From: a virus
Direction: 5' to 3' (one strand)
Virus genome (UHGV): UHGV-0212970
Length of the DNA stretch: 53,962 bases
Positions 4,623 through 40,099 of the stretch are shown in pieces (position 1 is the stretch's first letter; each line of letters opens with the position of its first letter). Under the pieces are notes generated by a model that was given only the letters and a program-made list of their open reading frames with translations, ran no database searches and was not told the DNA's origin. The position numbers and the translations under genes were made by a program.

Positions 4623-5126
4623 GGGTAAAGAAATACCGTGATTGCTATGAAAGTTATACATTCTTTCAGCTTCTTTTCTTGCTTTTACGGCATCATCAAA
4701 TGAGTCACCGTAATAAACGTATATTGTTTTCTTTTTCCCATCAGATCACCTTATACCTATTTGCGCACGCCATTTATTGGTTTTCTTGTTCCACGTAACG
4801 CCAACGCATCCGCTAGTATTACTTGATGGCATTGTTTTGTTTCTGTTATTCTCCTTCCTTGTCACCATCCTTAAGTTTTCGATTCTATCGTCACCAGGTA
4901 CATGATTTATGTGATCTATTTCCATTCCATCAGGAATAGGGCCGTTAAACATTTCCCAGATAATGCGGTGACGCCATGTGCAACAAATACCATTAACGCG
5001 TACAGTCCAATATCCGCGATAATGTTTACATCCAGCCACGCTACCTGCTTTTATTTTGTTATTTGCACGGTTACAAGACCAATATAGAACGCCGTCGCTA
5101 TATGTAAATAAATCATCCCACATCAT
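4623..5126 (-). CDS. HNH endonuclease with AP2-like C-terminal domain, reading frame interrupted by a stop codon near 4746-4748
   Basis: ORF track 4746..5228 (likely start at MMWDD, 5126) has HNH motif EIDHINH...NLRMVTRKEN; 41 further codons after the TGA encode the rest of an AP2-like domain (KKKTIYVYYGDSFDDAVKARKEAERMYNFHSNHG) matching the intact paralog at 32592..33083. Confidence 0.6.
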
Positions 5127-6243
5127 GACACCCCACCATTTCAGGCCTATATACAAAGCGACCAATTTCGCCATAATCAGGACTGTAAATGATAACCGCA
5201 GCGCAACGTTGCGATCTCCATCCTCCATTAGTTGAATAAGCGTCTTTGCCCGCTAACGTGCCGTGGTGTTCAACTATGCCTATAGATGATTCTGTTACTG
5301 ATTTATGGTGCAAATGTCCGACATGGACGTAAACATATTTCGACTTTCCGAAATCCTCCCGCCAGTCAGCTACGCAAGCAGCCAACAAATTTTCCGGCTT
5401 TTTGATAGTGTGCCCGTGGTGGTAAGCAAGGAATGTTTTGCCGTACTGTGTGTGGTGGACGATAGCAGGGGACACATCAACCGTCACGCGCGGTTCATCT
5501 TCGTAAAAAGCCGCCAGCGCCGCGCGTAGCCAAATCATGCCTGACTGATCGTGATTGCCTGATAACACCTGGATTTCAACATCCTTATGATTTAGTAACA
5601 TCTTCCCGACCGCACGCCGGACCGACCGGATCGCCACGTAAACCAGTTTTGCGTAGCGTGAATCGCAATCCAGGACGTGATTGCTTGATGGCGTCACTGG
5701 TAACAGGCCGTCAGTATGAAGCACATCACCGCCGAGAAGTAAAACAGCCTTTTCAGACATTGGCGCAGCGCCTACCGAGTAGTCGAAGAAATCATTTAGC
5801 ACACGTTCAGCGATCCCGGTGTCGTAGCTTTCGCCGCATTCAGCTTTATGAGCAAGCGCCCCGATATGTAGATCGAATACCGGATAAAGGGCCAGGCTTT
5901 TTTGGAAATCAATTTCCGGCACTGGCACGGCCTCCGCGCGTGGCATATCTTCCGTGAAAGCATCGCAAGCCGCTTGCATTAGCCTTTCCATTTCATCGCG
6001 ATCACGGGCTGTTTTAATCCAGCGCATAATCACATTGCCATCCTTATCGACGAGCAAAGACTCACCATTGACGCCAAAACCCGGTGCGCGGCGCGTGGAT
6101 ATTAAACCGCGTTTCGCCAACCGTGCGCCCAGGCGTTCGACGTTGCGTTTTGCCATGCCATATTTTTCTGCGATCTGTTTATACGTCAGACCGTTATTAT
6201 GTTCAGCGATTAACTGTTCATCGCTGATCTTTCTTTGTGACAT
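5113..6243 (-). CDS. Calcineurin-like metallophosphoesterase with N-terminal HTH
   Basis: 376 aa; motifs DLHIG, GGDVLH, GNHD, HHGH, GHLH; N-terminal HTH-like segment (GLTYKQIAEKYGMAKRNVERL). Confidence 0.65.
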   Translation of the reverse strand: MSQRKISDEQLIAEHNNGLTYKQIAEKYGMAKRNVERLGARLAKRGLISTRRAPGFGVNGESLLVDKDGNVIMRWIKTARDRDEMERLMQAACDAFTEDMPRAEAVPVPEIDFQKSLALYPVFDLHIGALAHKAECGESYDTGIAERVLNDFFDYSVGAAPMSEKAVLLLGGDVLHTDGLLPVTPSSNHVLDCDSRYAKLVYVAIRSVRRAVGKMLLNHKDVEIQVLSGNHDQSGMIWLRAALAAFYEDEPRVTVDVSPAIVHHTQYGKTFLAYHHGHTIKKPENLLAACVADWREDFGKSKYVYVHVGHLHHKSVTESSIGIVEHHGTLAGKDAYSTNGGWRSQRCAAVIIYSPDYGEIGRFVYRPEMVGCHDVG

Positions 6244-6639: not shown

Positions 6640-7692
6640 TCAAAGAACGCCAGCGCGTGTATCACGTAGCGTTTTTGGTTTAAGCAGGAAATCAAGTGTC
6701 GCAGTAAAGCCATTGCCGAAGTAAAAATCTGAAGCCGTGTTTTTGAACGTTTCGAAGTAGGCGACAAAGCCGTTAATGCTTTTGTCTTTCAGGTAGTCAG
6801 TGAACGCATAGATCTTGCGTTCAAGATCCCGATCCAGTTCGGCAGGTGGTAACAGGCCGTCAAACGTGCTGTTAAATGCTTCCACCACGTCGGCAGCGTT
6901 TACAGTAGCTGATAGCTTGCGCCATTGTTCAGCATCAGCCAAATACCCATCAAACTTAGTTACCCGGCAAATGTTGATAGGCTTAGGTGTTCCACCACGG
7001 CTACGCCATTGCGTTAAAGCCCACTCAATCACTAATGTGATCTCATCCTCCGTATACGCTTTACGTGTTTTTGTTTCTGTCAGTAGTTCTACGAATGGCT
7101 TAGCATCACGACATTTGCATCCTGCCTTGTCGTTGTAGAAGGCAAGGCAACGCAATGCCGCTTCGTTTACGCCATCCTGATTGACCATTTTTTGTTCATT
7201 TTCGACAATACACGAAGTGTATATATCTTTTTCTCTTTCTTTTTCTACTTCTAATTCTAATTCATGACCCTTTCCTGACCCGGTCATGACCCTATCATGA
7301 CCTTTTGGTGTTGAATTGATTAACTTTTCTAATTTTAATTGCTCCTTCGCTGTGTTTATGGCGGCCCTGTAAGCGCTTTTAGAAGTCATTGATTGGTCCA
7401 GCCTTTTCAATAACTTTAAACAAGTTATGTGGCCTTGAGAACATTCAAACAAACCAATTTCGATGAAGTATTTCATTATTTCTTCTGTACGTTTTTCAGT
7501 AGATCCGACGTTTCGCGCAATTATTCTTGCGTCATGTCGTAGGTTAAAAGTTAGATTGTGCTGATCTACGTCATAAGTTATTAGTTCTAGGCAATACCAA
7601 TAAAGCCCGTACCCTTCCAGGCCATAATCTAATAAAACGTTTTGAAGTTTTTCATCGCGGTTCGCATCGCTATCATGCTTAAACCACTTCAT
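6640..7692 (-). CDS. Phage replisome organizer / replication initiation protein (DUF4373-like N-terminal domain)
   Basis: 350 aa; N-terminus MKWFKHDSDANRDEKLQNVLLDYGLEGYGLYWYCLELI matches the DUF4373 pattern as I recall it; sits upstream of the helicase. Confidence 0.6.
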   Translation of the reverse strand: MKWFKHDSDANRDEKLQNVLLDYGLEGYGLYWYCLELITYDVDQHNLTFNLRHDARIIARNVGSTEKRTEEIMKYFIEIGLFECSQGHITCLKLLKRLDQSMTSKSAYRAAINTAKEQLKLEKLINSTPKGHDRVMTGSGKGHELELEVEKEREKDIYTSCIVENEQKMVNQDGVNEAALRCLAFYNDKAGCKCRDAKPFVELLTETKTRKAYTEDEITLVIEWALTQWRSRGGTPKPINICRVTKFDGYLADAEQWRKLSATVNAADVVEAFNSTFDGLLPPAELDRDLERKIYAFTDYLKDKSINGFVAYFETFKNTASDFYFGNGFTATLDFLLKPKTLRDTRAGVL

Positions 7693-7695
7693 AGA

Positions 7696-7950
7696 TCATT
7701 CCTCCGGCAATGCAATGTCATAAATGTCGCCGTATTCGTCAGCGCGTTTAATGAATCCTTTGCGGATCAATGAATTTAATGCGTCAACAGCAGTATGCAG
7801 TGGCAGTTCGCACACTTTTGCGATCTCTTCGCGTGAAGCATGTGCGCGGCCTTTGTTGTCTGCCTTTTCTGCAAACGCAATTAAGACAAGTTTTTGGATC
7901 GGGCTGTTAAGTTTTACGTTCCATGCTTCATTCATCATGCGCATACTCAT
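7696..7950 (-). CDS. HTH DNA-binding protein, first gene of the leftward operon (Cro-like or replication-associated)
   Basis: 84 aa; winged-helix-like segment SREEIAKVCELPLHTAVDALNSLIRKGFIK; divergent from the repressor gene. Confidence 0.45.
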   Translation of the reverse strand: MSMRMMNEAWNVKLNSPIQKLVLIAFAEKADNKGRAHASREEIAKVCELPLHTAVDALNSLIRKGFIKRADEYGDIYDIALPEE

Positions 7951-8059
7951 CTTGTTTTTCTCCTATGGTTAGAGTGAACGCGCGGGCGGGCATCCCATTA
8001 GCATTAGATAGCAGTGACTGACCGCTCAACAGATCCCGCCGTTGCGTGATATTTGTTTT

Positions 8060-8092
8060 TCGCTTCGCAGCGACACCGGATTTTTAAAGAGC
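8060..8092 (-). promoter_or_regulatory. nutR-like antitermination site (boxA GCTCTTTAAAAA plus GNRA-loop hairpin) on the leftward transcript
   Basis: Minus-strand GCTCTTTAAAAA is 1 mismatch from the rrn/lambda boxA consensus; about 11 nt further along the transcript is hairpin uCGCU-GCGA-AGCGa. Confidence 0.4.
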
Positions 8093-8168
8093 TTAAGGTA
8101 AGTGCCTTTTGTGCCTTCCGTTATCTTTTTCTTTGCGTCTTTGCAAGTATGGCCTTACCTTGTCTGCA

Positions 8169-8196
8169 AGTTTACAAAATGGAATTTTAAGATCAA
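8169..8196 (-). promoter_or_regulatory. Candidate leftward early promoter (PR-like) overlapping motif copy TTTACAAAATGG
   Basis: Minus strand TTGATC-N16-TAAACT; CCATTTTG element lies in the spacer. Confidence 0.35.
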
Positions 8197-8220
8197 GGCT
8201 TAAAATACACGTTTTGTGAC

Positions 8221-8248
8221 TTGCATCAAACCTTTTGAGGTTATAGGG
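8221..8248 (+). promoter_or_regulatory. Candidate repressor-gene promoter (PRM-like)
   Basis: TTGCAT-N16-TATAGG ending about 7 nt before the cI-like ATG; would give a near-leaderless mRNA. Confidence 0.3.
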
Positions 8249-8255
8249 TAGCGAC

Positions 8256-8903
8256 ATGAAAACAAAATGGTATGACTTAGCAAAGCAGCTCATGCGGGCG
8301 CAGGGCATGAGTCAGGATTCACTCGCAGATCTCATGGGGATAACTAAAGGCGGCCTGTCACACTGGCTTAACGGTCGCCGCGAGCCAAATCTTGAAGATA
8401 TTGCGCGGATTATGCGGGCGCTTGGGCGTCGTCAGTTCACTGTTACACATGATGGTATGGTCATTGATGATTCTGTTTCTAATACACTTCAGGCCGCACC
8501 GCCGCGTGATTTAGGTAGTTACCCGGTTATTGACTGGAAGGACACAGTAAACAATATGGATGACACAAGGCGATCAGCATTACCACACGTTACGACTAGC
8601 GTTATTTGTTCAGATGATAGTTACTGGCTGGTTGCCAAAGGTGAATCAATGAACGCGCCGCAGGGGTTAAGCATCCCGGCGGGGACGATGATACTTGTTG
8701 ACCCGCACGCGCCAGCTATTGACGGCAAACTGGTTATAGCCCAGCTTGAGGAAGGGCAGATACCGACGTTTAAACAGTTGATTATTGATGGAGGTCAAAG
8801 GCTTTTACGTTCGCTGAATCCGCTGTATCCGCCAATCCCTATGAATCCAGAATCAAAAATTATAGGCGTGGTGGTTGATGCGAAGATCGTAAACCTGCCA
8901 TAA
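8256..8903 (+). CDS. CI-like prophage repressor (XRE-family HTH plus S24 LexA-like peptidase domain)
   Basis: 215 aa; N-terminal HTH (SQDSLADLMGITKGGLSHWLNGRR), C-terminal S24 motifs (VAKGESM ... TFKQL). Confidence 0.85.
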   Translation: MKTKWYDLAKQLMRAQGMSQDSLADLMGITKGGLSHWLNGRREPNLEDIARIMRALGRRQFTVTHDGMVIDDSVSNTLQAAPPRDLGSYPVIDWKDTVNNMDDTRRSALPHVTTSVICSDDSYWLVAKGESMNAPQGLSIPAGTMILVDPHAPAIDGKLVIAQLEEGQIPTFKQLIIDGGQRLLRSLNPLYPPIPMNPESKIIGVVVDAKIVNLP

Positions 8904-8908
8904 ACATT

Positions 8909-8934
8909 AGCCGCCGAATGGCGGCTTTTCTTTG
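8909..8934 (+). terminator. Rho-independent terminator after the repressor gene
   Basis: Hairpin AGCCGCC-GAAT-GGCGGCT followed by TTTTCTTT. Confidence 0.7.
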
Positions 8935-9012
8935 CCTGGAAAACACCAAAACGTAAACAGAAAACGTTATTTATTATTTAAATATCAATGGTATATAAAT
9001 ATTTTAAAAAAG

Positions 9013-9024
9013 TATACAAAATGG
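9013..9024 (-). promoter_or_regulatory. Copy of the recurrent 12-nt element (TATACAAAATGG) abutting the -35 of the rightward early promoter
   Basis: Exact motif copy; its reverse complement reads CCATTTTGTATACT (TG plus -10-like hexamer) facing the repressor 3' end. Confidence 0.35.
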
Positions 9025-9025
9025 A

Positions 9026-9054
9026 TTGACTCGGTGTTTTACGGGGCGTATATT
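9026..9054 (+). promoter_or_regulatory. Sigma70-type early rightward promoter (PL-like)
   Basis: TTGACT-N17-TATATT with AT-rich upstream region; followed by a roughly 340-nt untranslated leader. Confidence 0.6.
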
Positions 9055-9308
9055 GCGAATCAAAGGAAGGGCGCAGGTAACAAAAGCAACTTCCTGGCAC
9101 TTTAAAAATCAGGCTTAACACCTTGTCAACCGTGGAGTAACTCCCCGATGGGGGACCGAAAGCGGCACTGATAACAAGGCGCATGGGGTGTTTAAAGCGT
9201 TACATCCCCCACGAAACCGCACGCAAGGCGACGAGTCAGCTTGCTTGGAGTGAGCAAGGTCACGCCGGGAACGGCGATGATTGCGGGATTAGTTGAAAGA
9301 TGTTAAGC

Positions 9309-9347
9309 CGCTCATTAACAATCTGGTCAGCCGCTGGAAGTGCGGCA
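9309..9347 (+). promoter_or_regulatory. nutL-like antitermination site (boxA CGCTCATTAACAA plus boxB-like hairpin)
   Basis: GCTCATTAACAA is 1 mismatch from boxA GCTCTTTAACAA; 12 nt downstream hairpin GCCGC-UGGAAGU-GCGGC with purine-rich loop; just upstream of the N-like gene. Confidence 0.45.
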
Positions 9348-9402
9348 ATTAACGAAGATGATTTTTTATTAAGTATCATCAAGGATATACGGAGATCAGA
9401 TT

Positions 9403-9693
9403 ATGAGCGTTACAATTATATATGGTAAATGTGATAGCAAAATGAATGCCAGGGAACGCAGAAGGATAAAAAGAGAAAACGAAAGAAAATCATCACCTGC
9501 AATCAATAAAACAGACAATGTGGATAAAGCTATTCGATTTGCAAACGAGGAAAGATGCAAACCAAATAGCATTAAAGAACGTCGCAAAGGATCAGTAAAA
9601 TGGTATACGGAAAATGAAAGCGGCAGCTACTACCACGCAACGCAACCACGCCATTTAGGGGAAAAACCCCTGGATAAAGTCCGCTATCATTAA
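9403..9693 (+). CDS. N-like transcription antiterminator (arginine-rich motif)
   Basis: 96 aa; MSVTIIYGKCDSKMNARERRRIKRENERK resembles the P22 gene 24/lambda N arginine-rich N-terminus as I recall it; SD GGAG upstream. Confidence 0.65.
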   Translation: MSVTIIYGKCDSKMNARERRRIKRENERKSSPAINKTDNVDKAIRFANEERCKPNSIKERRKGSVKWYTENESGSYYHATQPRHLGEKPLDKVRYH

Positions 9694-9722
9694 TACAAAA
9701 TGTAAACATCCGGAGATGACAT

Positions 9723-9842
9723 TATGGTTATTCAGGCGCTTCAATTCAAACTGGCAGTAGCGGAAATGCTTCACGATGCCGAAATGTGGAGCGCCGCGAA
9801 TAAAGCCTTATACATAGTGTTAACAGCGAAGGAGGCTAGTTA
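9723..9842 (+). CDS. Small hypothetical protein (39 aa)
   Basis: ATG-initiated ORF filling the gap between N-like gene and HNH gene. Confidence 0.3.
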
Positions 9843-10373
9843 ATGTCTTATTCAAAACATGGAATGACGCACACAAAACTTTATGAAGTTTTTAAAGGAA
9901 TGAAAACGAGATGCAGGAAAACCGATAAGAATCCACGAAATAAACACTATAAGGATAAGAATATAACTATATGTGATGAATGGTTGAATGATTCATCAAA
10001 GTTTATTGAGTGGGCTTTCAATAACGGTTATCAGGAAGGGTTAGAGATAGACAGAATTGATAACGACAAAGGTTATTCACCGGATAATTGCCGATGGGTT
10101 ACACATGCTGAAAACATGCGCAATACATGTAGAACTACGATGTTAACAGTGAGCGGGGAAACTAACACAATACATTATTTTTCCGAAAAATACGGTATAT
10201 GTGAACGCACCATATATACAAGATTACGTCGCGGCTGGAGTCATGAGGCCGCTGTACTTCTTCCTTTAAGAAAGGGGAAACGATGTGAAGAAAGATTTAT
10301 ACAAAAAATTGTGGCTAATTCAGCAACAATTAAAAGCGCCAAAATCTCAGCGCAATTCATACGGTGGATATAA
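9843..10373 (+). CDS. HNH homing-type endonuclease
   Basis: 176 aa; N-terminal TKLYEVFKGMKTRC module, HNH motif IDRIDNDKGYSPDNCRWVTHAENMRN, C-terminal RLRRGWS helix. Confidence 0.75.
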   Translation: MSYSKHGMTHTKLYEVFKGMKTRCRKTDKNPRNKHYKDKNITICDEWLNDSSKFIEWAFNNGYQEGLEIDRIDNDKGYSPDNCRWVTHAENMRNTCRTTMLTVSGETNTIHYFSEKYGICERTIYTRLRRGWSHEAAVLLPLRKGKRCEERFIQKIVANSATIKSAKISAQFIRWI

Positions 10374-11863: not shown

Positions 11864-11943
11864 ATCTTGCAAAAATTGCCGCATTGCTTGCGGCTTTATC
11901 TATCGCGTGCTGTATCTCAGCGTGTCGCTTTATATCACGGTAG
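11860..11943 (+). CDS. Small hydrophobic peptide (27 aa)
   Basis: MNLAKIAALLAALSIACCISACRFISR; ATGA overlap with upstream stop. Confidence 0.3.
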   Translation: MNLAKIAALLAALSIACCISACRFISR

Positions 11944-16309: not shown

Positions 16310-17069
16310 GCGGGCTTAGAAATTGGGTTATCTGGTCGCTGTACGACGGAAGCGGGTACGCCGTTAAAGATTGGGCGGAAGCTGGTATAAATGCTATTGC
16401 TTCAACTATGACGGCGCTAATCACGGGGATTATGACGGGGTAAAAATAATTCATCCAAATATTGAATATGTTAACGTATGGATTGACAGCCATTTCCTGG
16501 TAATGTTCTCCCCTGAATTGTCTGTTTATCCAGATCCTGACATTATCTTGGGCTTTCCTCCGTGTGATGATCTTGCCGTATCAGGCGCTCGTTGGTTCGC
16601 TGATAAACGGAAAAAAGATCCTGGCTTCCAGGTAAAGGCGGCGTATAACGCAAAAATTGTAGAAAAACTGGCGAATATGTATAACGTGCCGTGGATGGTG
16701 GAAAATCCAGTTGGCGCACTGTCAACGTTATGGCGTAAACCGGATTTTATCTTCAATCCTTGCGTTTACGGTGGCTACCTGCCTGAAGATGACAAACATC
16801 CTGCTTTCCCGGAATACATTGCCGACCGCGATGCCTACACGAAGAAAACTTGTATTTGGTGCGGGAATGGATTTAAGCAGCCGCTATTCCGTCCTGTGCC
16901 GATGCCAGATGAATGGGAAGACAGTAAGCAGCACGCGAAGTTAGGCGGAAAATCAAAGCGAACAAAGATGATCCGCTCACTAACGCCGCGTGGCTTCGCC
17001 CGTGCTGTATTCCTAGCTAACGACCGGGCCATCAATCGTACTACGCTCAACCGCGTTTTGCCGGACTGA
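16306..17069 (+). pseudogene. DNA (cytosine-5)-methyltransferase split between two reading frames (16306..16443 and 16371..17069)
   Basis: Upstream short frame encodes motif-I-like WVIWSLYDGSGYAVKDWAEAG then stops; ORF-track frame 16371..17069 carries motif IV GFPPC and motif VI ENPVG; junction within 16371..16443. Confidence 0.5.
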
Positions 17070-17091
17070 AGTTTACAAAATGGCGTCATTG

Positions 17092-17107
17092 TGTGATGAA
17101 TGTCACA
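17092..17107. promoter_or_regulatory. Perfect CRP-consensus palindrome TGTGA-N6-TCACA
   Basis: TGTGATGAATGTCACA lies between an inverted pair of the 12-nt element, centred about 60 nt upstream of the TG-TATACT element at 17139-17152. Confidence 0.35.
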
Positions 17108-17138
17108 TAATGGCGCTTTACACTTTGTTAGCACGTAT

Positions 17139-17152
17139 CCATTTTGTATACT
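17139..17152 (+). promoter_or_regulatory. Promoter-like element CCATTTTGTATACT (extended -10 type)
   Basis: Member of the recurrent element family; precedes the 17229 small gene and NinG. Confidence 0.35.
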
Positions 17153-17228
17153 TCAAGCAAACAAAATGCTCTTTAAAAATCCGGCAGCGCTGAAATGCGT
17201 AGAAATCACCTGAAAAGGAGAGAGCATT

Positions 17229-17405
17229 ATGCCTTTTGATAATTACCAATGGCATGACGACTATGAACGAGAAAGCGTTATGCGTGCAATGTGCAATGTA
17301 TGCAGCACGAAGAAAGGAGGCTGTAACGAGTGCAACGAATGCTTAGAACATTGGCTAAGGGCCGGACACGCCGAAAGGCTGAACGAAACAGAGAATCAAA
17401 AATAA
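17229..17405 (+). CDS. Small Cys-rich protein (about 58 aa, putative zinc ribbon)
   Basis: MPFDNYQWHDDYERESVMRAMCNVCSTKKGGCNECNECLEHW...; SD GGAGAG upstream; 3' end coordinate uncertain. Confidence 0.3.
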   Translation: MPFDNYQWHDDYERESVMRAMCNVCSTKKGGCNECNECLEHWLRAGHAERLNETENQK

Positions 17406-17418
17406 TCGGGGTGGTTTT

Positions 17419-18024
17419 ATGCAAAACCCTAAAAAACCCATAAGACGCCGTTGCAAGTGCTGCGGCGTTTTTTTTGAGCCTAAATATCATAATCAAACGT
17501 GGTGCAGCGATGAATGTCTGGAAGAACTGAAGTTTGACCAGCTATGCCGCGACCGTGAAAAGGCTATGAAGGCGATGGAACGGAAGAAACGCCGCAACAG
17601 CCAGCGGGAAGAACGCAACCGGAAGCGTAAGCAGTTAAATCCGCGTAGCTACTGGCTGAAACAGGCGCAAGCGGTATTTAATGCCTATATCCGCGAACGT
17701 GATGCGCGTTTGCCGTGTATATCCTGCGGGACTTATTACGGTGAGCAATGCGGATACGATGCGGGCCATTATAGGACTGTAGCCGCCGCCGGACACCTTC
17801 GCTTCAATGAAGATAACGTTCATAAACAATGCAGGCACTGCAACCAGACATTAGATGGCAACATCGGAGGGTATCGCCCGGCGCTGATTCGAAAAATTGG
17901 CCTCGCCAGGGTGGTGGCGCTGGAGAACAACAACGAAACTCACAAATGGACGATAGAAGAATGTAAGGAAATCATAAAAGTCTATCAGTCTAAATTAGAC
18001 GCCTTAAGGAGAAAGGCAGCATGA
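17419..18024 (+). CDS. ninG: NinG/Rap-family recombination-promoting nuclease
   Basis: 201 aa; Cys clusters and basic region consistent with NinG; precedes RusA as in lambdoid nin regions. Confidence 0.7.
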   Translation: MQNPKKPIRRRCKCCGVFFEPKYHNQTWCSDECLEELKFDQLCRDREKAMKAMERKKRRNSQREERNRKRKQLNPRSYWLKQAQAVFNAYIRERDARLPCISCGTYYGEQCGYDAGHYRTVAAAGHLRFNEDNVHKQCRHCNQTLDGNIGGYRPALIRKIGLARVVALENNNETHKWTIEECKEIIKVYQSKLDALRRKAA

Positions 18025-22911: not shown

Positions 22912-22955
22912 TATACAAAATGGCATTGTTTCGGCGGTGCCATTTTGTTATAAAG
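22912..22955. promoter_or_regulatory. Inverted pair of the 12-nt element (TATACAAAATGG - 16 nt - CCATTTTGTTATAAA)
   Basis: Right arm gives TG-n-TATAAA extended -10 about 35 nt upstream of the 22990 gene. Confidence 0.35.
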
Positions 22956-31701: not shown

Positions 31702-32587
31702 CACCGAAGACCCGACCATGACAGGTAAGTTGCGGTCGGGCGCTATTAAGCGTTTTAAATCCTGCCTGAAGAAAATAGCCGATCCATATATCGCCATACT
31801 GGACAGAATACAATATAGCCTGGCTGTTAATAAGAAATACACCTTCCAGATTTACATGGATGAATTGCACGACATGCTGGAGGACGCCAGCAACATGATT
31901 GATGAGATATTCGAACTAACCGACCCGGAAAGTTTTTGGTTCTGGCAGGAATACGTGAAGGTGGCCTATCAGCGCGGCACGGCACAGGAATACGCCAACA
32001 TCGCTAACCAGTCTGTCACGTACTCAAGCGCATACCCTGATGTATCTGCCGTGTTATCAAGCACAACTTACCGCACCCGCCTTGCCCTGGTGCGTACCCG
32101 TGTATTTGAGGAAATGCGCGGGCTGACCGCACAGATCAAAAAGGATATGGCCCGGCGATTAACTGAAGGCATGGCCCGTGGTTTAAATCCACTGGAAATA
32201 GCGCGCACATTGAATCAGGAAACGCAATTGCCACTGTACAGGTGCAAACGTATTGCCCGAACTGAAATATGCACAGCGTTACGCACAGCACGTATGGATG
32301 AGGCCGAAGCGGCGACAGAAGAATTTAATCTGCGCACTATGCAAATGCACATTTCGGCATTATCACCGACTACCAGGCTATCGCACGCGCAGCGGCACGG
32401 GAAAACATACACCATAGATGAGCAGCGCGAATGGTGGAGCAGATCCCCAAATTCTATTAACTGCAAATGTAGCACGATTACCGTATTAGTTGACGAAGAC
32501 GGTAACATATTAAACGAAAGAATATTAGATCGGGCGCAAGAAAACTATAAGGTTGCGCACGCTAAATATGGCGAAGATTGGGAGTAA
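31691..32587 (+). CDS. Head morphogenesis protein (Mu F / SPP1 gp7 family)
   Basis: ORF track 31643..32587; C-terminal region RIARTEICTALRTARMDEAEA ... HAQRHGKTY resembles the MuF-like domain. Confidence 0.7.
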   Translation: MPSNTEDPTMTGKLRSGAIKRFKSCLKKIADPYIAILDRIQYSLAVNKKYTFQIYMDELHDMLEDASNMIDEIFELTDPESFWFWQEYVKVAYQRGTAQEYANIANQSVTYSSAYPDVSAVLSSTTYRTRLALVRTRVFEEMRGLTAQIKKDMARRLTEGMARGLNPLEIARTLNQETQLPLYRCKRIARTEICTALRTARMDEAEAATEEFNLRTMQMHISALSPTTRLSHAQRHGKTYTIDEQREWWSRSPNSINCKCSTITVLVDEDGNILNERILDRAQENYKVAHAKYGEDWE

Positions 32588-32591
32588 AACC

Positions 32592-33083
32592 GTGAGTAAA
32601 ATGATTAACTGGCATGATTATTTCACGTATGAATCAGGTCATATTTATTGGAAAATATCACCAACTAACGGCGTACATATTGGCGATCATGCAGGCAATG
32701 ACAGCGGGTTAGGATATTTGCGTGTCCGTGTCAACTATAGGTTATATCTTGTTAGTAGAATCATATGGGAAATGCACAACGGACCGATACCTGAAGGTTA
32801 CGAGATAGATCATATTGACCATAACACGCTAAATAACGATATAACGAATCTAAGGATGGTAAGTCATTACGAAAATACACTAAATGCGCCAATGAGAAAA
32901 GATAATAAAAGCGGTTACATCGGTGTTATTTGGCATAAGGCGTCACGTAAATGGATGGCGTATGTACAAGTGAATAAGAAGCGCAAACATTTAGGTTTAT
33001 TTGACAGCATAGATGAGGCTGTAGCCGCACGCCGACAAGCTGAAAAAGAGAACAATTATCATCCAAATCACGGGAGTGTTTAA
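32592..33083 (+). CDS. HNH endonuclease with AP2-like C-terminal domain (intact paralog)
   Basis: ORF track 32553..33083; HNH motif EIDHIDHNTLNNDITNLRMVSHYEN; AP2-like YIGVIWHKASRKWMAYVQVNKKRKHLGLFDSIDEAVAARR. Confidence 0.8.
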   Translation: MSKMINWHDYFTYESGHIYWKISPTNGVHIGDHAGNDSGLGYLRVRVNYRLYLVSRIIWEMHNGPIPEGYEIDHIDHNTLNNDITNLRMVSHYENTLNAPMRKDNKSGYIGVIWHKASRKWMAYVQVNKKRKHLGLFDSIDEAVAARRQAEKENNYHPNHGSV

Positions 33084-40055: not shown

Positions 40056-40099
40056 TATACAAAATGGAGTCGTTGAAGTAAAGCCATTTTGTATAAAAT
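40056..40099. promoter_or_regulatory. Divergent promoter-like pair built from inverted copies of the 12-nt element
   Basis: TATACAAAATGG - 16 nt - CCATTTTGTATAAAAT; each arm gives TG plus TATAA(G/A) -10-like box, facing the lipoprotein genes leftward and tape measure rightward. Confidence 0.4.

Follow-up and report, generated by a model that had tools for sequence, protein, structure and literature searches.

The window, the whole 53,962-nucleotide stretch of viral DNA analysed here, very probably contains the immunity and early-control centre of its phage, in which the lambda-N-type antitermination system of the group is combined with an accessory RNA insert in the leader of the antiterminator gene. 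The antitermination module is a member of the published Gp17/nut system and is not new; this main finding is ordinary, because a lambda-N-like switch is already on record for E. coli phages of the mEp021 group. The leader insert, in contrast, adds details beyond the accessible text of the published description.

Phage identity and layout of the locus

Judging by sequence, the phage is a temperate coliphage of the mEpimmI group (mEp021-like), positions 7900-9800 of the window being 92-94% identical to mEp515, mEp010, and mEp021. The mEpimmI group is common in the human gut. The genes and nut sites of the locus are as follows.

8256-8903, plus strand: cI-like repressor gene with HTH_3 and Peptidase_S24 domains, the immunity gene between the divergent early transcripts
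9403-9693, plus strand: gene for the Gp17-type N-like antiterminator (96 aa), with the Shine-Dalgarno sequence GGAG at 9391-9394
9310-9346, plus strand: nutR1, composed of boxA GCTCATTAACAA (9310-9321), spacer TCTGGTCA, and boxB GCCGCUGGAAGUGCGGC (9330-9346)
8060-8092, minus strand: nutL, composed of boxA GCTCTTTAAAAA (8092-8081), spacer TCCGGTG, and boxB UCGCU-GCGA-AGCGA (8073-8060)
17168-17200, plus strand: nutR2, composed of boxA GCTCTTTAAAAA (17168-17179) and boxB GCGCUGAAAUGCGU (17187-17200)

The cI-like protein matches the Pfam families HTH_3 (E = 5e-13) and Peptidase_S24 (E = 4e-19) and PHROG 4 (transcriptional repressor), and the same gene carries a cI repressor annotation in mEp010/044/515/554. 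In the proposed layout, this gene would be flanked by two early promoters: (i) the rightward promoter (9026-9054) would start a transcript with a ~340-nt untranslated leader that contains nutR1 and precedes the gene for the 96-aa Gp17, and (ii) the leftward promoter (~8195-8168, minus strand) would start a transcript with nutL ahead of the replication genes. A third, repressor-type promoter at ~17125 would produce a transcript with nutR2. The initial annotation of the sequence did not include nutR2 at 17168-17200, boxA#1 at 9097-9113, the presence/absence insert, or the genome-wide spread of the repeated element, all described below.

The nut sites and the N-like antiterminator Gp17

BoxA-like sequences at 9309-9347 and 8060-8092, each followed by a purine-loop hairpin, had been proposed in the initial annotation; both were confirmed, and the boxA pattern is far above chance. 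The variants GCTCATTAACAA and GCTCTTTAAAAA are each one mismatch off GCTCTTTAACAA. With at most one mismatch, the pattern has four matches in the window against 0.82 expected, a number reached in 0 of 100 shuffles, and with the shared TCYGG extension the four matches compare with 0.07 expected. Among relatives, boxA at the nut sites is invariant or nearly so, nutL is nearly invariant across ~30 related loci, and nutR1 is found alike in the long-form and short-form leaders described below.

The nutR1 hairpin has the form GCCGCU-GGAAG-UGCGGC (9330-9346, plus strand). The boxB stem occurs in the variants GCCGC/GCGGC, GCUAC/GUAGC, GCAC/GUGC, and UCGC/GCGA, both sides being changed in three of five pairs among relatives (a small sample of 8 sequences), while the loop CU-GNRA-(U/A)G is conserved. 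The covariation score for these 8 sequences is 0.30, compared with 0.145 in shuffles, and was reached by 3 of 500 shuffles. The covarying stems and the conserved GNRA-like purine loop suggest that the boxB hairpin is kept by selection; covariance across related phages, named at the outset as a check, backs both proposed nut sites in this way. The three sites correspond, by position and description rather than by published sequences, to nutR1, nutL, and nutR2 of mEp021 as they appear in the accessible text of PMC11893012.

According to that text (section 3.5, citing Valencia-Toxqui et al. 2023, Arch Virol 168:92), Gp17 of mEp021 is the early antiterminator, shown by experiment to be N-like, and acts at nutR1, nutL, and nutR2; nutR1 lies upstream of gp17 and nutL upstream of the repressor gene (gp15). 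In the window, the Gp17 gene, directly downstream of the cI-like gene, is the first ORF to follow the promoter at 9026-9054. The 96-aa basic protein at 9403 was noted earlier for its arginine-rich N-terminus, which we could place at residues 15-24 (N15-A-R-E-R-R-R-I-K-R24, with R17, R19, R20, R21, and R24). Arginines 17, 19, 20, and 24 are described as conserved in the accessible part of PMC11893012, and all four are found in this protein.

Gp17 of the window shares 100% of its residues with the MagusPhagus "anti-termination protein N-like", 93% with mEp021 Gp17, and 92-98% with the proteins of the six mEp phages, and its PHROG match is to PHROG 271, which bears the same name, 'anti-termination protein N-like' (E = 1.3e-13). 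The family is narrow: its 31 clusters are all at least 60% identical and confined to this phage group, and a search of one genome per species gave no relatives. The sequence of Gp17 appears N-like only remotely and falls outside the Pfam N family, since PF25694 N_peptide scores 15.9 bits (E = 0.019), below the 27.9 cut-off. No lambda N chain was retrieved by phmmer against PDB at E <= 10, and the NCBIfam search gave no match.

The earlier proposal of an N-type antitermination module is nevertheless upheld by the PHROG 271 match, the identity to mEp021 Gp17, the comparative nut data, and the mEp021 work as far as its accessible text describes it. Lambda N and the mEp021 experiments suggest, by analogy, how the module would work: Gp17 would bind the GNRA-type loop of boxB through its arginine-rich motif, while NusB/NusE would bind boxA; together with NusA/NusG, the resulting complex would let RNA polymerase read through downstream terminators such as those at 11878-11894 and 17449-17467. 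The mEp phages are reported to be Nus-factor dependent in the available text of PMC11893012.

Promoters, terminators and a repeated operator-like element

The transcription signals and operator-like elements considered here are listed below.

9026-9054, plus strand: rightward early promoter TTGACT-N17-TATATT (promoter scan), with an inferred start at ~9061
8168-8195, minus strand: putative leftward early promoter TTGATC-N16-TAAACT, read from the sequence and below the scan threshold
17069-17200, plus strand: third early control region with operator-like elements, a promoter, and nutR2
9010-9024, plus strand: operator-like element AAGTATACAAAATGG, which abuts the -35 hexamer and corresponds to the '12-nt element' of the initial annotation
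8909-8926, plus strand: intrinsic terminator 3' of the repressor gene, AGCCGCCGAATGGCGGCT then TTTTCTTT (terminator scan)
11878-11894, plus strand: first strong intrinsic terminator downstream of nutR1 (terminator scan)
17449-17467, plus strand: intrinsic terminator 250 nt downstream of nutR2, CGTTGCAAGTGCTGCGGCG then TTTTTTTT (terminator scan)

The rightward promoter that had been read from the sequence was recovered as the best sigma-70 match in the region (10/12); both hexamers are conserved in all relatives, and the spacer varies. The -10 hexamer of the leftward promoter overlaps the operator-like AAGTTTACAAAATGG (8168-8182, plus strand), the same layout as at the third early promoter, and a second leftward candidate, TTGATG-N16-TATTTT, is located at 8230-8203. 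In the third control region, the promoter TTGTTA-N16-TATACT (17125-17152) is accompanied by operator-like elements at 17069-17083 (plus strand) and 17139-17153 (minus strand). The terminator at 8909-8926 is annotated likewise in mEp021 and relatives. The site at 11878-11894 is by position TERM_2 of mEp021 and the expected target of antitermination; this site and the one at 17449-17467 are consensus matches only. Terminators t1, t2, and t5 of mEp021 are reported as experimentally shown in the accessible text of PMC11893012.

The repeated element noticed earlier around 9013 proved to be genome-wide. Its exact 15-mer occurs at 8168, 9010, 17069, and 17139 (minus strand), its 10-mer core TACAAAATGG has 10 occurrences in the window against 0.13 expected, and the copy at 9010-9024 is invariant in all relatives. 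Because these 10 copies are mostly intergenic and some of them form inverted pairs (TACAAAATGG-N16-CCATTTTGTA), a protein-binding site fits. The element looks like an operator half-site rather than an antisense promoter, and AAGTWTACAAAATGG is the probable repressor operator at all three early promoters and at about six other mostly intergenic sites. The earlier idea that the element near 9013 could drive a transcript antisense to cI did not hold up. The reverse strand of the element, CCATTTTGTATACTT, does include a good -10 hexamer (TATACT), and the copies of the element at 8168 and 17139 each overlap the -10 hexamer of a probable promoter reading in that direction. However, a leftward promoter at 9010-9024 that produces RNA antisense to the repressor 3' end is quite improbable: no minus-strand -35 hexamer above 3/6 is present 16-18 nt upstream, no minus-strand promoter near 9013 passes the promoter scan, copies of the element recur across the genome in the pattern of a protein-binding site, and the transcript would reach the terminator hairpin 8926-8909 within ~90 nt.

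A structured insert in the Gp17 leader

The leader of the Gp17 gene extends over ~342 nt from the inferred start (~9061) to the ATG at 9403. The whole leader folds better than shuffled sequence (z = -3.8), and the terminator scan found no plus-strand intrinsic terminator within it. The following features were distinguished.

9097-9113, plus strand: boxA#1, a second boxA-like sequence GCACTTTAAAAATCAGG with no boxB after it
9112-9309, plus strand: structured core of the insert (consensus fold, folding z = -3.7)
9240-9258, plus strand: the sole covarying hairpin of the insert, CUUGCU/AGCAAG changed to AUCACU/AGUGGU in the RM9245 lineage
9183-9296, plus strand: ORF of 37 aa annotated as gp16 in mEp021, probably not a gene

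Comparison of relatives revealed that the leader is not uniform. Most relatives share a 213-nt insert, at positions 9097-9309 of the window, which is absent from mEp044, mEp554, the E. coli 190 and PAR prophages, and the related loci L064 and L065. In one laboratory collection, mEp021/010/515 have the long form of the leader and mEp013/044/554 the short form. This presence/absence polymorphism has a precise boundary at boxA. BoxA#1 is invariant in all long-form leaders and has one mismatch to the gamma-proteobacterial boxA consensus GYTCTTTAANA (PMC5725501). The other copy, boxA#2, is perfect in all five short-form leaders and departs from this consensus in 30 of the 31 unique long-form leaders, via three different changes; both copies are thus imperfect in the long-form leaders. 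This contrast between the two forms hints that boxA#1 may be functional.

The predicted fold of the insert starts with a closing helix of 17 bp, in which 9112-9130 pairs with 9292-9309, enclosing two domains (9131-9213 and 9217-9286) with several hairpins each. Folding of the sense strand gives a well-defined ensemble, and both the G-U pairs and a U-to-C change turning G-U into G-C fit the plus strand only. The mean pairwise identity of the insert is 98% (minimum 93%) compared with 93% for cI and 92% for gp17, and 2-12 differences per 213 nt of insert stand against 44-66 per 216 third-codon positions of cI (Fisher p ~1e-8 to 7e-13). By these comparisons the insert is under strong constraint, although its conservation could partly reflect recent recombinational spread rather than selection. 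In the hairpin at 9240-9258, three pairs are changed on both sides and one U-A pair became U-G, all of this covariation coming from one lineage. The other nine of the ten predicted helices never vary and hence are neither supported nor refuted.

The insert was found at this locus only by blastn in 5,426 E. coli genomes and phages, and nhmmer detected no second copy, either in the window itself or across ~560 kb of related loci. An exact-pattern scan of IMG/VR yielded 55 loci, ~35 of them true, and a metagenome scan yielded 46, of which 11 were true. All true matches are near-identical mEpimmI phages, the rest being chance matches such as L026, located within a coding region; neither scan yielded divergent homologues that would strengthen the covariation test. 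Rfam 15, whose scope included introns, ribozymes, riboswitches, and 6S, gave no match at gathering thresholds in the whole window and nothing relevant at E <= 10 over 7900-9800 or 9056-9402, and ARAGORN found no tRNA or tmRNA in the leader.

Several other candidates were rejected. A group I intron or ribozyme gave no Rfam signal. A retron RNA was considered as well and dropped; no reverse-transcriptase gene was noticed beside the insert. An antisense small RNA from the minus strand of the insert disagrees with the G-U pairs, and transcription from the promoter-like site on that strand (9306-9277) would begin within the closing helix. Pairing of the boxA 3' end with the region before the start codon was predicted and is not conserved in RM9245, L064, or L065.

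The idea that the leader carries extra RNA structure stands insofar as the insert is strongly constrained and contains a covarying hairpin; however, the insert is dispensable for antitermination or growth, because it is absent from plaque-forming phages.

Possible roles of the insert

Of the possible readings, an accessory RNA domain of the Gp17 leader, non-coding and acting on the sense strand, suits the insert best; we do not regard it as a gene, and we prefer a cis-acting role for it. It may tune how strongly Gp17 is expressed or how stable the leader is, for instance if RNase III cuts the closing helix as in the lambda N leader. Alternatively, boxA#1 may recruit Nus factors early, protecting the long untranslated leader and helping it to fold, as boxA does before the 16S rRNA stem. 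A more specific possibility, which we put forward tentatively, is that the insert is a structured RNA module, specific to this lineage and not described before, with the build of an rRNA leader in miniature, where boxA would tether Nus factors to RNA polymerase and promote co-transcriptional closure of the helix, leading either to a stable RNA excised by RNase III or to control of N-like antiterminator synthesis and of lysis-lysogeny timing. If true, RNA folding aided by boxA would have a natural case outside rRNA, and the N-type switch would receive a second input at the RNA level.

A coding role for the same segment has little to recommend it. The 37-aa product of gp16 (9183-9296) is annotated in three GenBank records (mEp021, mEp010, and mEp515), and its ORF is open in nearly all variants, but substitutions are spread evenly over codon positions 1/2/3 (7/4/6), six residues are radically changed in the RM9245 lineage while the RNA pairing is retained, the stop codon is lost in L040, and the ORF is missing from the short-form phages. 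It has no credible Shine-Dalgarno sequence and no PHROG or Pfam family match, and all small ORFs within the leader or near it, on either strand, likewise gave no match in PHROG. That the leader encodes this small protein is therefore highly improbable; the GenBank gp16 annotations probably mark no real gene, in agreement with the initial description of a ~340-nt leader with hairpins and no convincing ORF.

Two further explanations take the insert as something other than a leader domain. It could be the source of a trans-acting RNA: RNase III or another nuclease would cut the closing helix and release a stable, structured RNA of ~190 nt that acts elsewhere, for instance as a sponge or decoy of a host factor or a defence system, with the leader as its vehicle. 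Near-total nucleotide conservation would be less usual in a simple leader than in an RNA with tertiary structure, the long-range closing helix right after boxA repeats the layout of the rrn leader boxA and 16S processing stem (PMC4807359), and the presence of the insert is uncoupled from the gp17 allele, mEp021 and mEp044 having identical Gp17 and different leaders. On the other hand, the insert has neither a terminator nor an independent promoter, matches no known RNA family, and showed no co-occurring partner gene when gene content was compared with that of mEp044 and mEp554, two short-form phages, so that we regard this possibility as unlikely. Less probable still is a selfish or relic MITE-like element lodged in boxA, functionless for the phage and conserved by recent spread. 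Such an origin would explain the 13-nt terminal inverted repeats (GGCTTAACACCTT and AAGATGTTAAGCC), the two boxA-like direct repeats flanking the insert, and its presence/absence polymorphism, and mobile DNA is evidently active in the group, because the window has three free-standing HNH endonuclease ORFs that are lacking in mEp044 and mEp554. Yet each phage genome has a single copy, with none elsewhere in the E. coli genomes, other phages, or the viral and metagenome scans; the flanking repeats are identical at 13/17 positions and fixed in all carriers, so the insertion event would be old; the leader 5' of the insert also differs between the long and short forms, and thus this was not a clean insertion; and the insert, whose changes are compensatory, is far less diverged than the synonymous sites linked to it. 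With inverted repeats present, the target duplication imperfect, and a single copy, the insert does not qualify as a mobile element on sequence features.

The leader-domain reading can be addressed directly, because natural long- and short-form phages exist in one laboratory collection. The long-form Gp17 leader contains one of the most conserved non-coding segments in these genomes, a segment that follows its own boxA. The two-form leader, the doubtful gp16, and the genome-wide probable operator go beyond the published description as represented in its accessible text.

Comparison with known systems

The closest system is that of Gp17 in mEp021 and other mEpimmI phages: the phage group, gene order, repressor and promoter context, and positions of the three nut sites are the same, and nothing essential differs. 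The searched text of PMC11893012 (Negrete-Mendez et al. 2025) contains no mention of the leader dimorphism or boxA#1, of the hairpin that covaries, of doubts about gp16, or of TACAAAATGG as a genome-wide motif. The same text describes a phage of the mEp021 type as not lambdoid by a recombination test.

The module also resembles lambda N/nutL/nutR, P22 gp24, and phi21 N, which likewise have a small basic protein with an N-terminal arginine-rich motif encoded by the first early gene next to the immunity region. The nut sites share with the lambda type a boxA, a spacer, a 5-bp boxB hairpin with a GNRA-like purine loop, and terminators downstream. In contrast to lambda, direct sequence similarity to N is not significant, three nut sites and three early promoters are present instead of two, the interval between the promoter and nutL contains no cro-like gene, and the boxB loops are either of the GAAA or GCGA tetraloop type closed by U.U or U-A, or GGAAG, whereas the lambda type is a GAAAA pentaloop. 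The distance from the transcription start to boxA is ~37 nt in the short-form leader and ~34 nt at lambda nutL.

The leader of lambda N, reportedly processed by RNase III, is also long, structured, and untranslated between the early promoter and the antiterminator gene, with scope for post-transcriptional control; by analogy, the long helix described here is a possible RNase III substrate. The structured segment of lambda is located between nutL and the N start codon, whereas here it lies upstream of nutR1, follows its own boxA, and is optional within the phage group. In the rrn operon leader, only a few nucleotides separate boxA from the 5' arm of the 16S RNase III stem that follows it, which is the same layout as predicted here (PMC4807359; PMC5725501), although the closing helix of the insert encloses ~160 nt and that of rrn 1.5 kb. 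By blastn, the insert has no sequence similarity to E. coli DNA outside prophages.

The put RNA of HK022 is a cis-acting, protein-independent antitermination RNA of ~70 nt with two stem-loops that replaces N altogether. Likened by description rather than by direct comparison, put and the insert are both structured RNAs in the early leader of a temperate coliphage, just downstream of the early promoter, and no similarity between the two was detected; in the phage described here, however, a full N-like protein and nut system are present, and the extra RNA is dispensable.

Early gene order and phage identity

Over positions 7900-9800, the window is 92-94% identical to the Escherichia phages mEp515, mEp010 and mEp021, and MagusPhagus reaches 99.5% identity across the part of this interval that aligns. 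PMC11893012 places these phages in the mEpimmI group, whose members are temperate, Nus-dependent coliphages of human faeces and are not lambdoid. The gene order follows the same overall plan as that of lambda, but the names of the arms are swapped.

Features of the early region

6640-7692, minus: replication protein
7696-7950, minus: 84-aa HTH_36 protein, similar to the N-terminal part of replication initiators
8073-8060, minus: nutL boxB, UCGCU-GCGA-AGCGA, hairpin 3' of boxA 8092-8081
8256-8903, plus: cI-like repressor (HTH_3 and Peptidase_S24)
8909-8926, plus: terminator after the repressor gene
9026-9054, plus: rightward promoter TTGACT-N17-TATATT
Between promoter and 96-aa protein gene, plus: 342-nt gap
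9330-9346, plus: nutR1 boxB, GCCGCU-GGAAG-UGCGGC, hairpin 3' of boxA 9310-9321
9403-9693, plus: 96-aa basic protein
Downstream of the 96-aa protein gene, plus, in order: 39-aa Kil-like ORF, HNH endonuclease, Erf, SSB
11878-11894, plus: terminator-like hairpin after nutR1
17187-17200, plus: nutR2 boxB, GCGCU-GAAA-UGCGU, hairpin 3' of boxA 17168-17179
17449-17467, plus: strong terminator-like hairpin after nutR2, only 250 nt downstream of it

All sequence features listed in the initial annotation were confirmed. The rightward promoter proposed there was recovered by the promoter scan as the top sigma-70 match in the region, with a predicted transcription start near 9061. On the other arm, the leftward leader of about 210 nt contains nutL followed by a GC-rich stem, GGCGGG...CCCGCC (approximately 8039-7983, minus strand), and no cro-like ORF was found between the inferred leftward promoter and the 84-aa HTH_36 gene (7951-8167, minus strand). 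The repressor ATG at 8256 lacks a clear Shine-Dalgarno sequence (8243-8258), and a -10-like TATAGG ends 7 nt upstream of it, with TTGCAT some 15-16 nt further upstream; this arrangement suggests that the repressor maintenance transcript may be leaderless, as is lambda cI transcribed from PRM. The mEp021 record places the start of the repressor gene 17 codons later.

The 39-aa ORF directly 3' of the antiterminator gene (9724-9843) matches PHROG 34942 (E = 3e-28) and has a weak likeness to lambda Kil (Pfam Lambda_Kil, E = 1.8e-4, under the cut-off); its relative place is that of kil in the lambda PL operon. Three free-standing ORFs, 4746-5228 (minus), 9843-10373 (plus) and 32553-33083 (plus), are present in the window and missing from mEp044 and mEp554, and look like mobile endonuclease genes. 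The second matches HNH endonuclease families; it has the Kil-like ORF on one side and erf on the other, runs into the start of erf, and is lacking in mEp021 too. The other two are HNH-like by eye only.

N-type antitermination module

The initial annotation proposed an N-type antitermination module built on the 96-aa protein and nut-like sites. In a profile search, this protein matches PHROG 271, 'anti-termination protein N-like' (E = 1.3e-13); it did not reach the Pfam N_peptide threshold, and a search of the PDB gave no similarity to lambda N. Its family is narrow, comprising 31 clusters, each at least 60% identical, all from E. coli phages. The protein has the same sequence as a MagusPhagus protein that carries an N-like annotation, and it shares 93% identity with Gp17 of mEp021, which mediates early antitermination in that phage and whose residues R17, R19, R20 and R24 are conserved throughout (PMC11893012, section 3.5, citing Valencia-Toxqui et al. 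2023). The same paper places the action of Gp17 at nutR1 and nutL, which lie upstream of gp17 and of the repressor gene respectively, and at nutR2, which lies downstream of gp32. These sites are reported in all 48 genomes of the mEpimmI group. The nut sites of the window were equated with the published ones by position and description, the 2023 sites being taken from the citing paper PMC11893012.

BoxA-like dodecamers lie where they had been placed initially, at 9310-9321 (plus) and 8092-8081 (minus), with a purine-loop hairpin after each. With one mismatch allowed, the boxA pattern occurs four times in the window versus 0.82 expected; all four copies share a further TCYGG, and the extended pattern is expected only 0.07 times. 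Of the two additional copies, one is a third site (17168-17179) and the other a further copy in the leader (9097-9108); three of the four copies are followed by a short purine-loop hairpin. Since the published nut sites are reported in all 48 genomes and the copy at 9097 is missing from some phages, we infer that the published nutR1 is the site at 9310-9346. The third site belongs to an early control region (17069-17467) absent from the initial annotation, which comprises two operator-like elements, a promoter (TTGTTA-N16-TATACT), nutR2 and a terminator.

Covariance analysis across related phages, as had been suggested, showed that the boxB stems covary and the loop is kept. The nutR1 boxB stem varies yet stays paired among relatives with differing Gp17 alleles (GCCGC/GCGGC, GCUAC/GUAGC, GCAC/GUGC and UCGC/GCGA), with the loop form CU-GNRA-(U/A)G retained. 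In an alignment of eight nut sites, both sides changed in three of five stem pairs, and the observed covariation score was reached by only 3 of 500 shuffles. The arginine-rich motif occurs as NARERRRIKR, NARKRRRMKR, NARERRRLKR or NARTIRRMKRR, and the boxB type changes along with it, as a specific peptide-RNA pair would predict; the RM9245 type combines NARKRRRMKR with a GAAA loop, whereas the loop of the window type is GGAAG. Given the boxB covariation, the joint change of the motif and the downstream terminators, the N-type reading is well supported. The decisive evidence is the published work on mEp021, and the module itself is already known and not new.

Mosaic joints fall precisely at the nutR1 boxA in five related loci (the RM9245-type prophages L006, L066 and L067, together with L064 and L065). 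Upstream of this boxA, the insert included, these loci are 87-94% identical to the window, whereas downstream the boxB, the remaining leader and the 5' half of gp17 drop to 47-75%. BoxA seems to serve as a joint at which an immunity module and a module for antiterminator specificity recombine.

Repeated operator-like element

The core TACAAAATGG occurs 10 times in the window (4605, 8173, 9015, 17074, 17139 minus, 22914, 31516, 40058, 40084 minus and 43595 minus) versus 0.13 expected, and nine of the copies are apparently intergenic. Its full form AAGTWTACAAAATGG is found at all three early promoters (8168; 9010; 17069 with 17139), and the copy at 9010-9024 abuts the -35 hexamer of the rightward promoter. 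An inverted pair, TACAAAATGG-N16-CCATTTTGTA, is formed at 40058/40084, and a degenerate one at 22914, with CCATTTTGTT as the second arm. Repeat number, promoter placement and inverted pairs fit a DNA-binding site; the simplest reading, and a probable one, is an operator half-site of the repressor, a Rep021 homologue. The many dispersed sites recall the 'stoperators' of mycobacteriophage L5. The searched text of PMC11893012 gives no operator sequence.

The reverse strand of the element holds a -10-like TATACT that probably serves promoters reading in that direction at 8168 and 17139, which makes reasonable the earlier idea that the copy near 9013 could drive a transcript antisense to the repressor 3' end. 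However, this copy has no usable -35, and the scan reported no minus-strand promoter at 9010, which speaks against the proposal.

Long and short forms of the rightward leader

Of the features described here, only one merits experiment: a leader RNA that is optional and highly conserved and that carries a boxA itself. The spacer between the repressor gene and gp17 exists in two forms among the aligned relatives. The long form carries a 213-nt insert (9097-9309) and is found in the window, mEp021, mEp010, mEp515, MagusPhagus and RM9245-type prophages; the short form, without it, is found in mEp044, mEp554, the E. coli 190 and PAR prophages and two metagenomic relatives. mEp013 also appears to be short-form, because it gives the same two-piece, 84% match pattern. 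Among prophages of complete E. coli genomes, 31 are long-form and 4 short-form. Because short-form phages form plaques and were used for infection assays (PMC11893012), the insert must be dispensable.

In short-form leaders, about 37 nt separate the inferred transcription start from the beginning of the single boxA. The long form has GCACTTTAAAAATCAGG at this position, the boxA-like sequence that opens the insert, and the 3' end of the insert falls exactly at the nutR1 boxA. Compared with the consensus GYTCTTTAANA (PMC5725501), the nutR1 boxA is perfect in all five short-form leaders and departs in 30 of 31 distinct long-form leaders (T5A in 24, G1A in 2, G1T in 4). This fits a functional boxA at the start of the insert and suggests that the upstream copy alters selective pressure on the nutR1 boxA.

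Conservation and structure of the insert

Among the 31 distinct long-form sequences, mean pairwise identity of the insert is 98.0% (minimum 93.4%); the values for cI (93.0%), gp17 (91.8%) and the leader segment 5' of the insert (90.8%) are lower. Against individual relatives, the insert shows 2-12 differences per 213 nt, versus 44-66 per 216 at linked cI third-codon positions (Fisher p from about 1e-8 to 7e-13).

The leader folds more stably than its shuffles (z = -3.8), and the terminator scan found no plus-strand terminator within it. In the predicted fold of the insert, a 17-bp closing helix, which pairs 9112-9130 with 9292-9309, surrounds two multi-hairpin domains. Only the hairpin at 9240-9258 varies, with three compensatory double changes and a U-A to U-G change; the other nine predicted helices are invariant, which speaks neither for nor against them. 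Several G-U pairs and one U-to-C change turning G-U into G-C fit the plus strand alone. Judged by these sequence comparisons, the insert is under constraint and acts as RNA on the plus strand. The initial suggestion that the leader may carry extra RNA structure is upheld in part, by the constraint on the insert and its one covarying hairpin, but the insert is dispensable.

A 37-aa ORF, gp16 (9183-9296), is annotated inside the insert, with counterparts mEp021_16, mEp515_22 and mEp010_21 recorded in GenBank as 'hypothetical protein'. Its substitutions are spread over codon positions 1/2/3 as 7/4/6, with no third-position bias; the residue replacements at the covarying RNA stem are radical, one variant lacks the stop codon, and no protein family matches. 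On these grounds, the annotation is probably an artefact and not a gene.

Origin and possible functions of the insert

No Rfam family matches the insert even at E <= 10, and it is neither a tRNA nor a tmRNA. It is single-copy, and was not found elsewhere in E. coli genomes or in other phages; in viral and metagenome collections, every true match came from this same phage group and was a near-identical copy. The insert has 13-nt terminal inverted repeats and boxA-like direct repeats on both flanks. However, all carriers have the direct repeats fixed, with 4 of 17 positions mismatched between them, and the two forms also differ in the leader 5' of the insert, which rules out a recent clean transposition.

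The boxA that opens the insert has one mismatch to the consensus, and 3 nt separate it from the 5' arm of the closing helix, a layout shared with the rrn leader, where boxA lies ahead of the 16S processing stem. The lambda N leader is likewise structured and is cut by RNase III, and this cleavage modulates N synthesis. By analogy with these two systems, we favour a role in cis. The main alternative is that the insert is the source of a released, trans-acting RNA, but no partner gene for it emerged when gene content was compared with that of mEp044 and mEp554. A cis-acting insert could work in two ways: processing of the closing helix would control Gp17 synthesis or leader stability, or early Nus recruitment would protect and fold the long untranslated leader before any Gp17 exists; in the rrn leader, Nus factors tethered at boxA have been proposed to aid co-transcriptional folding (PMC4807359).
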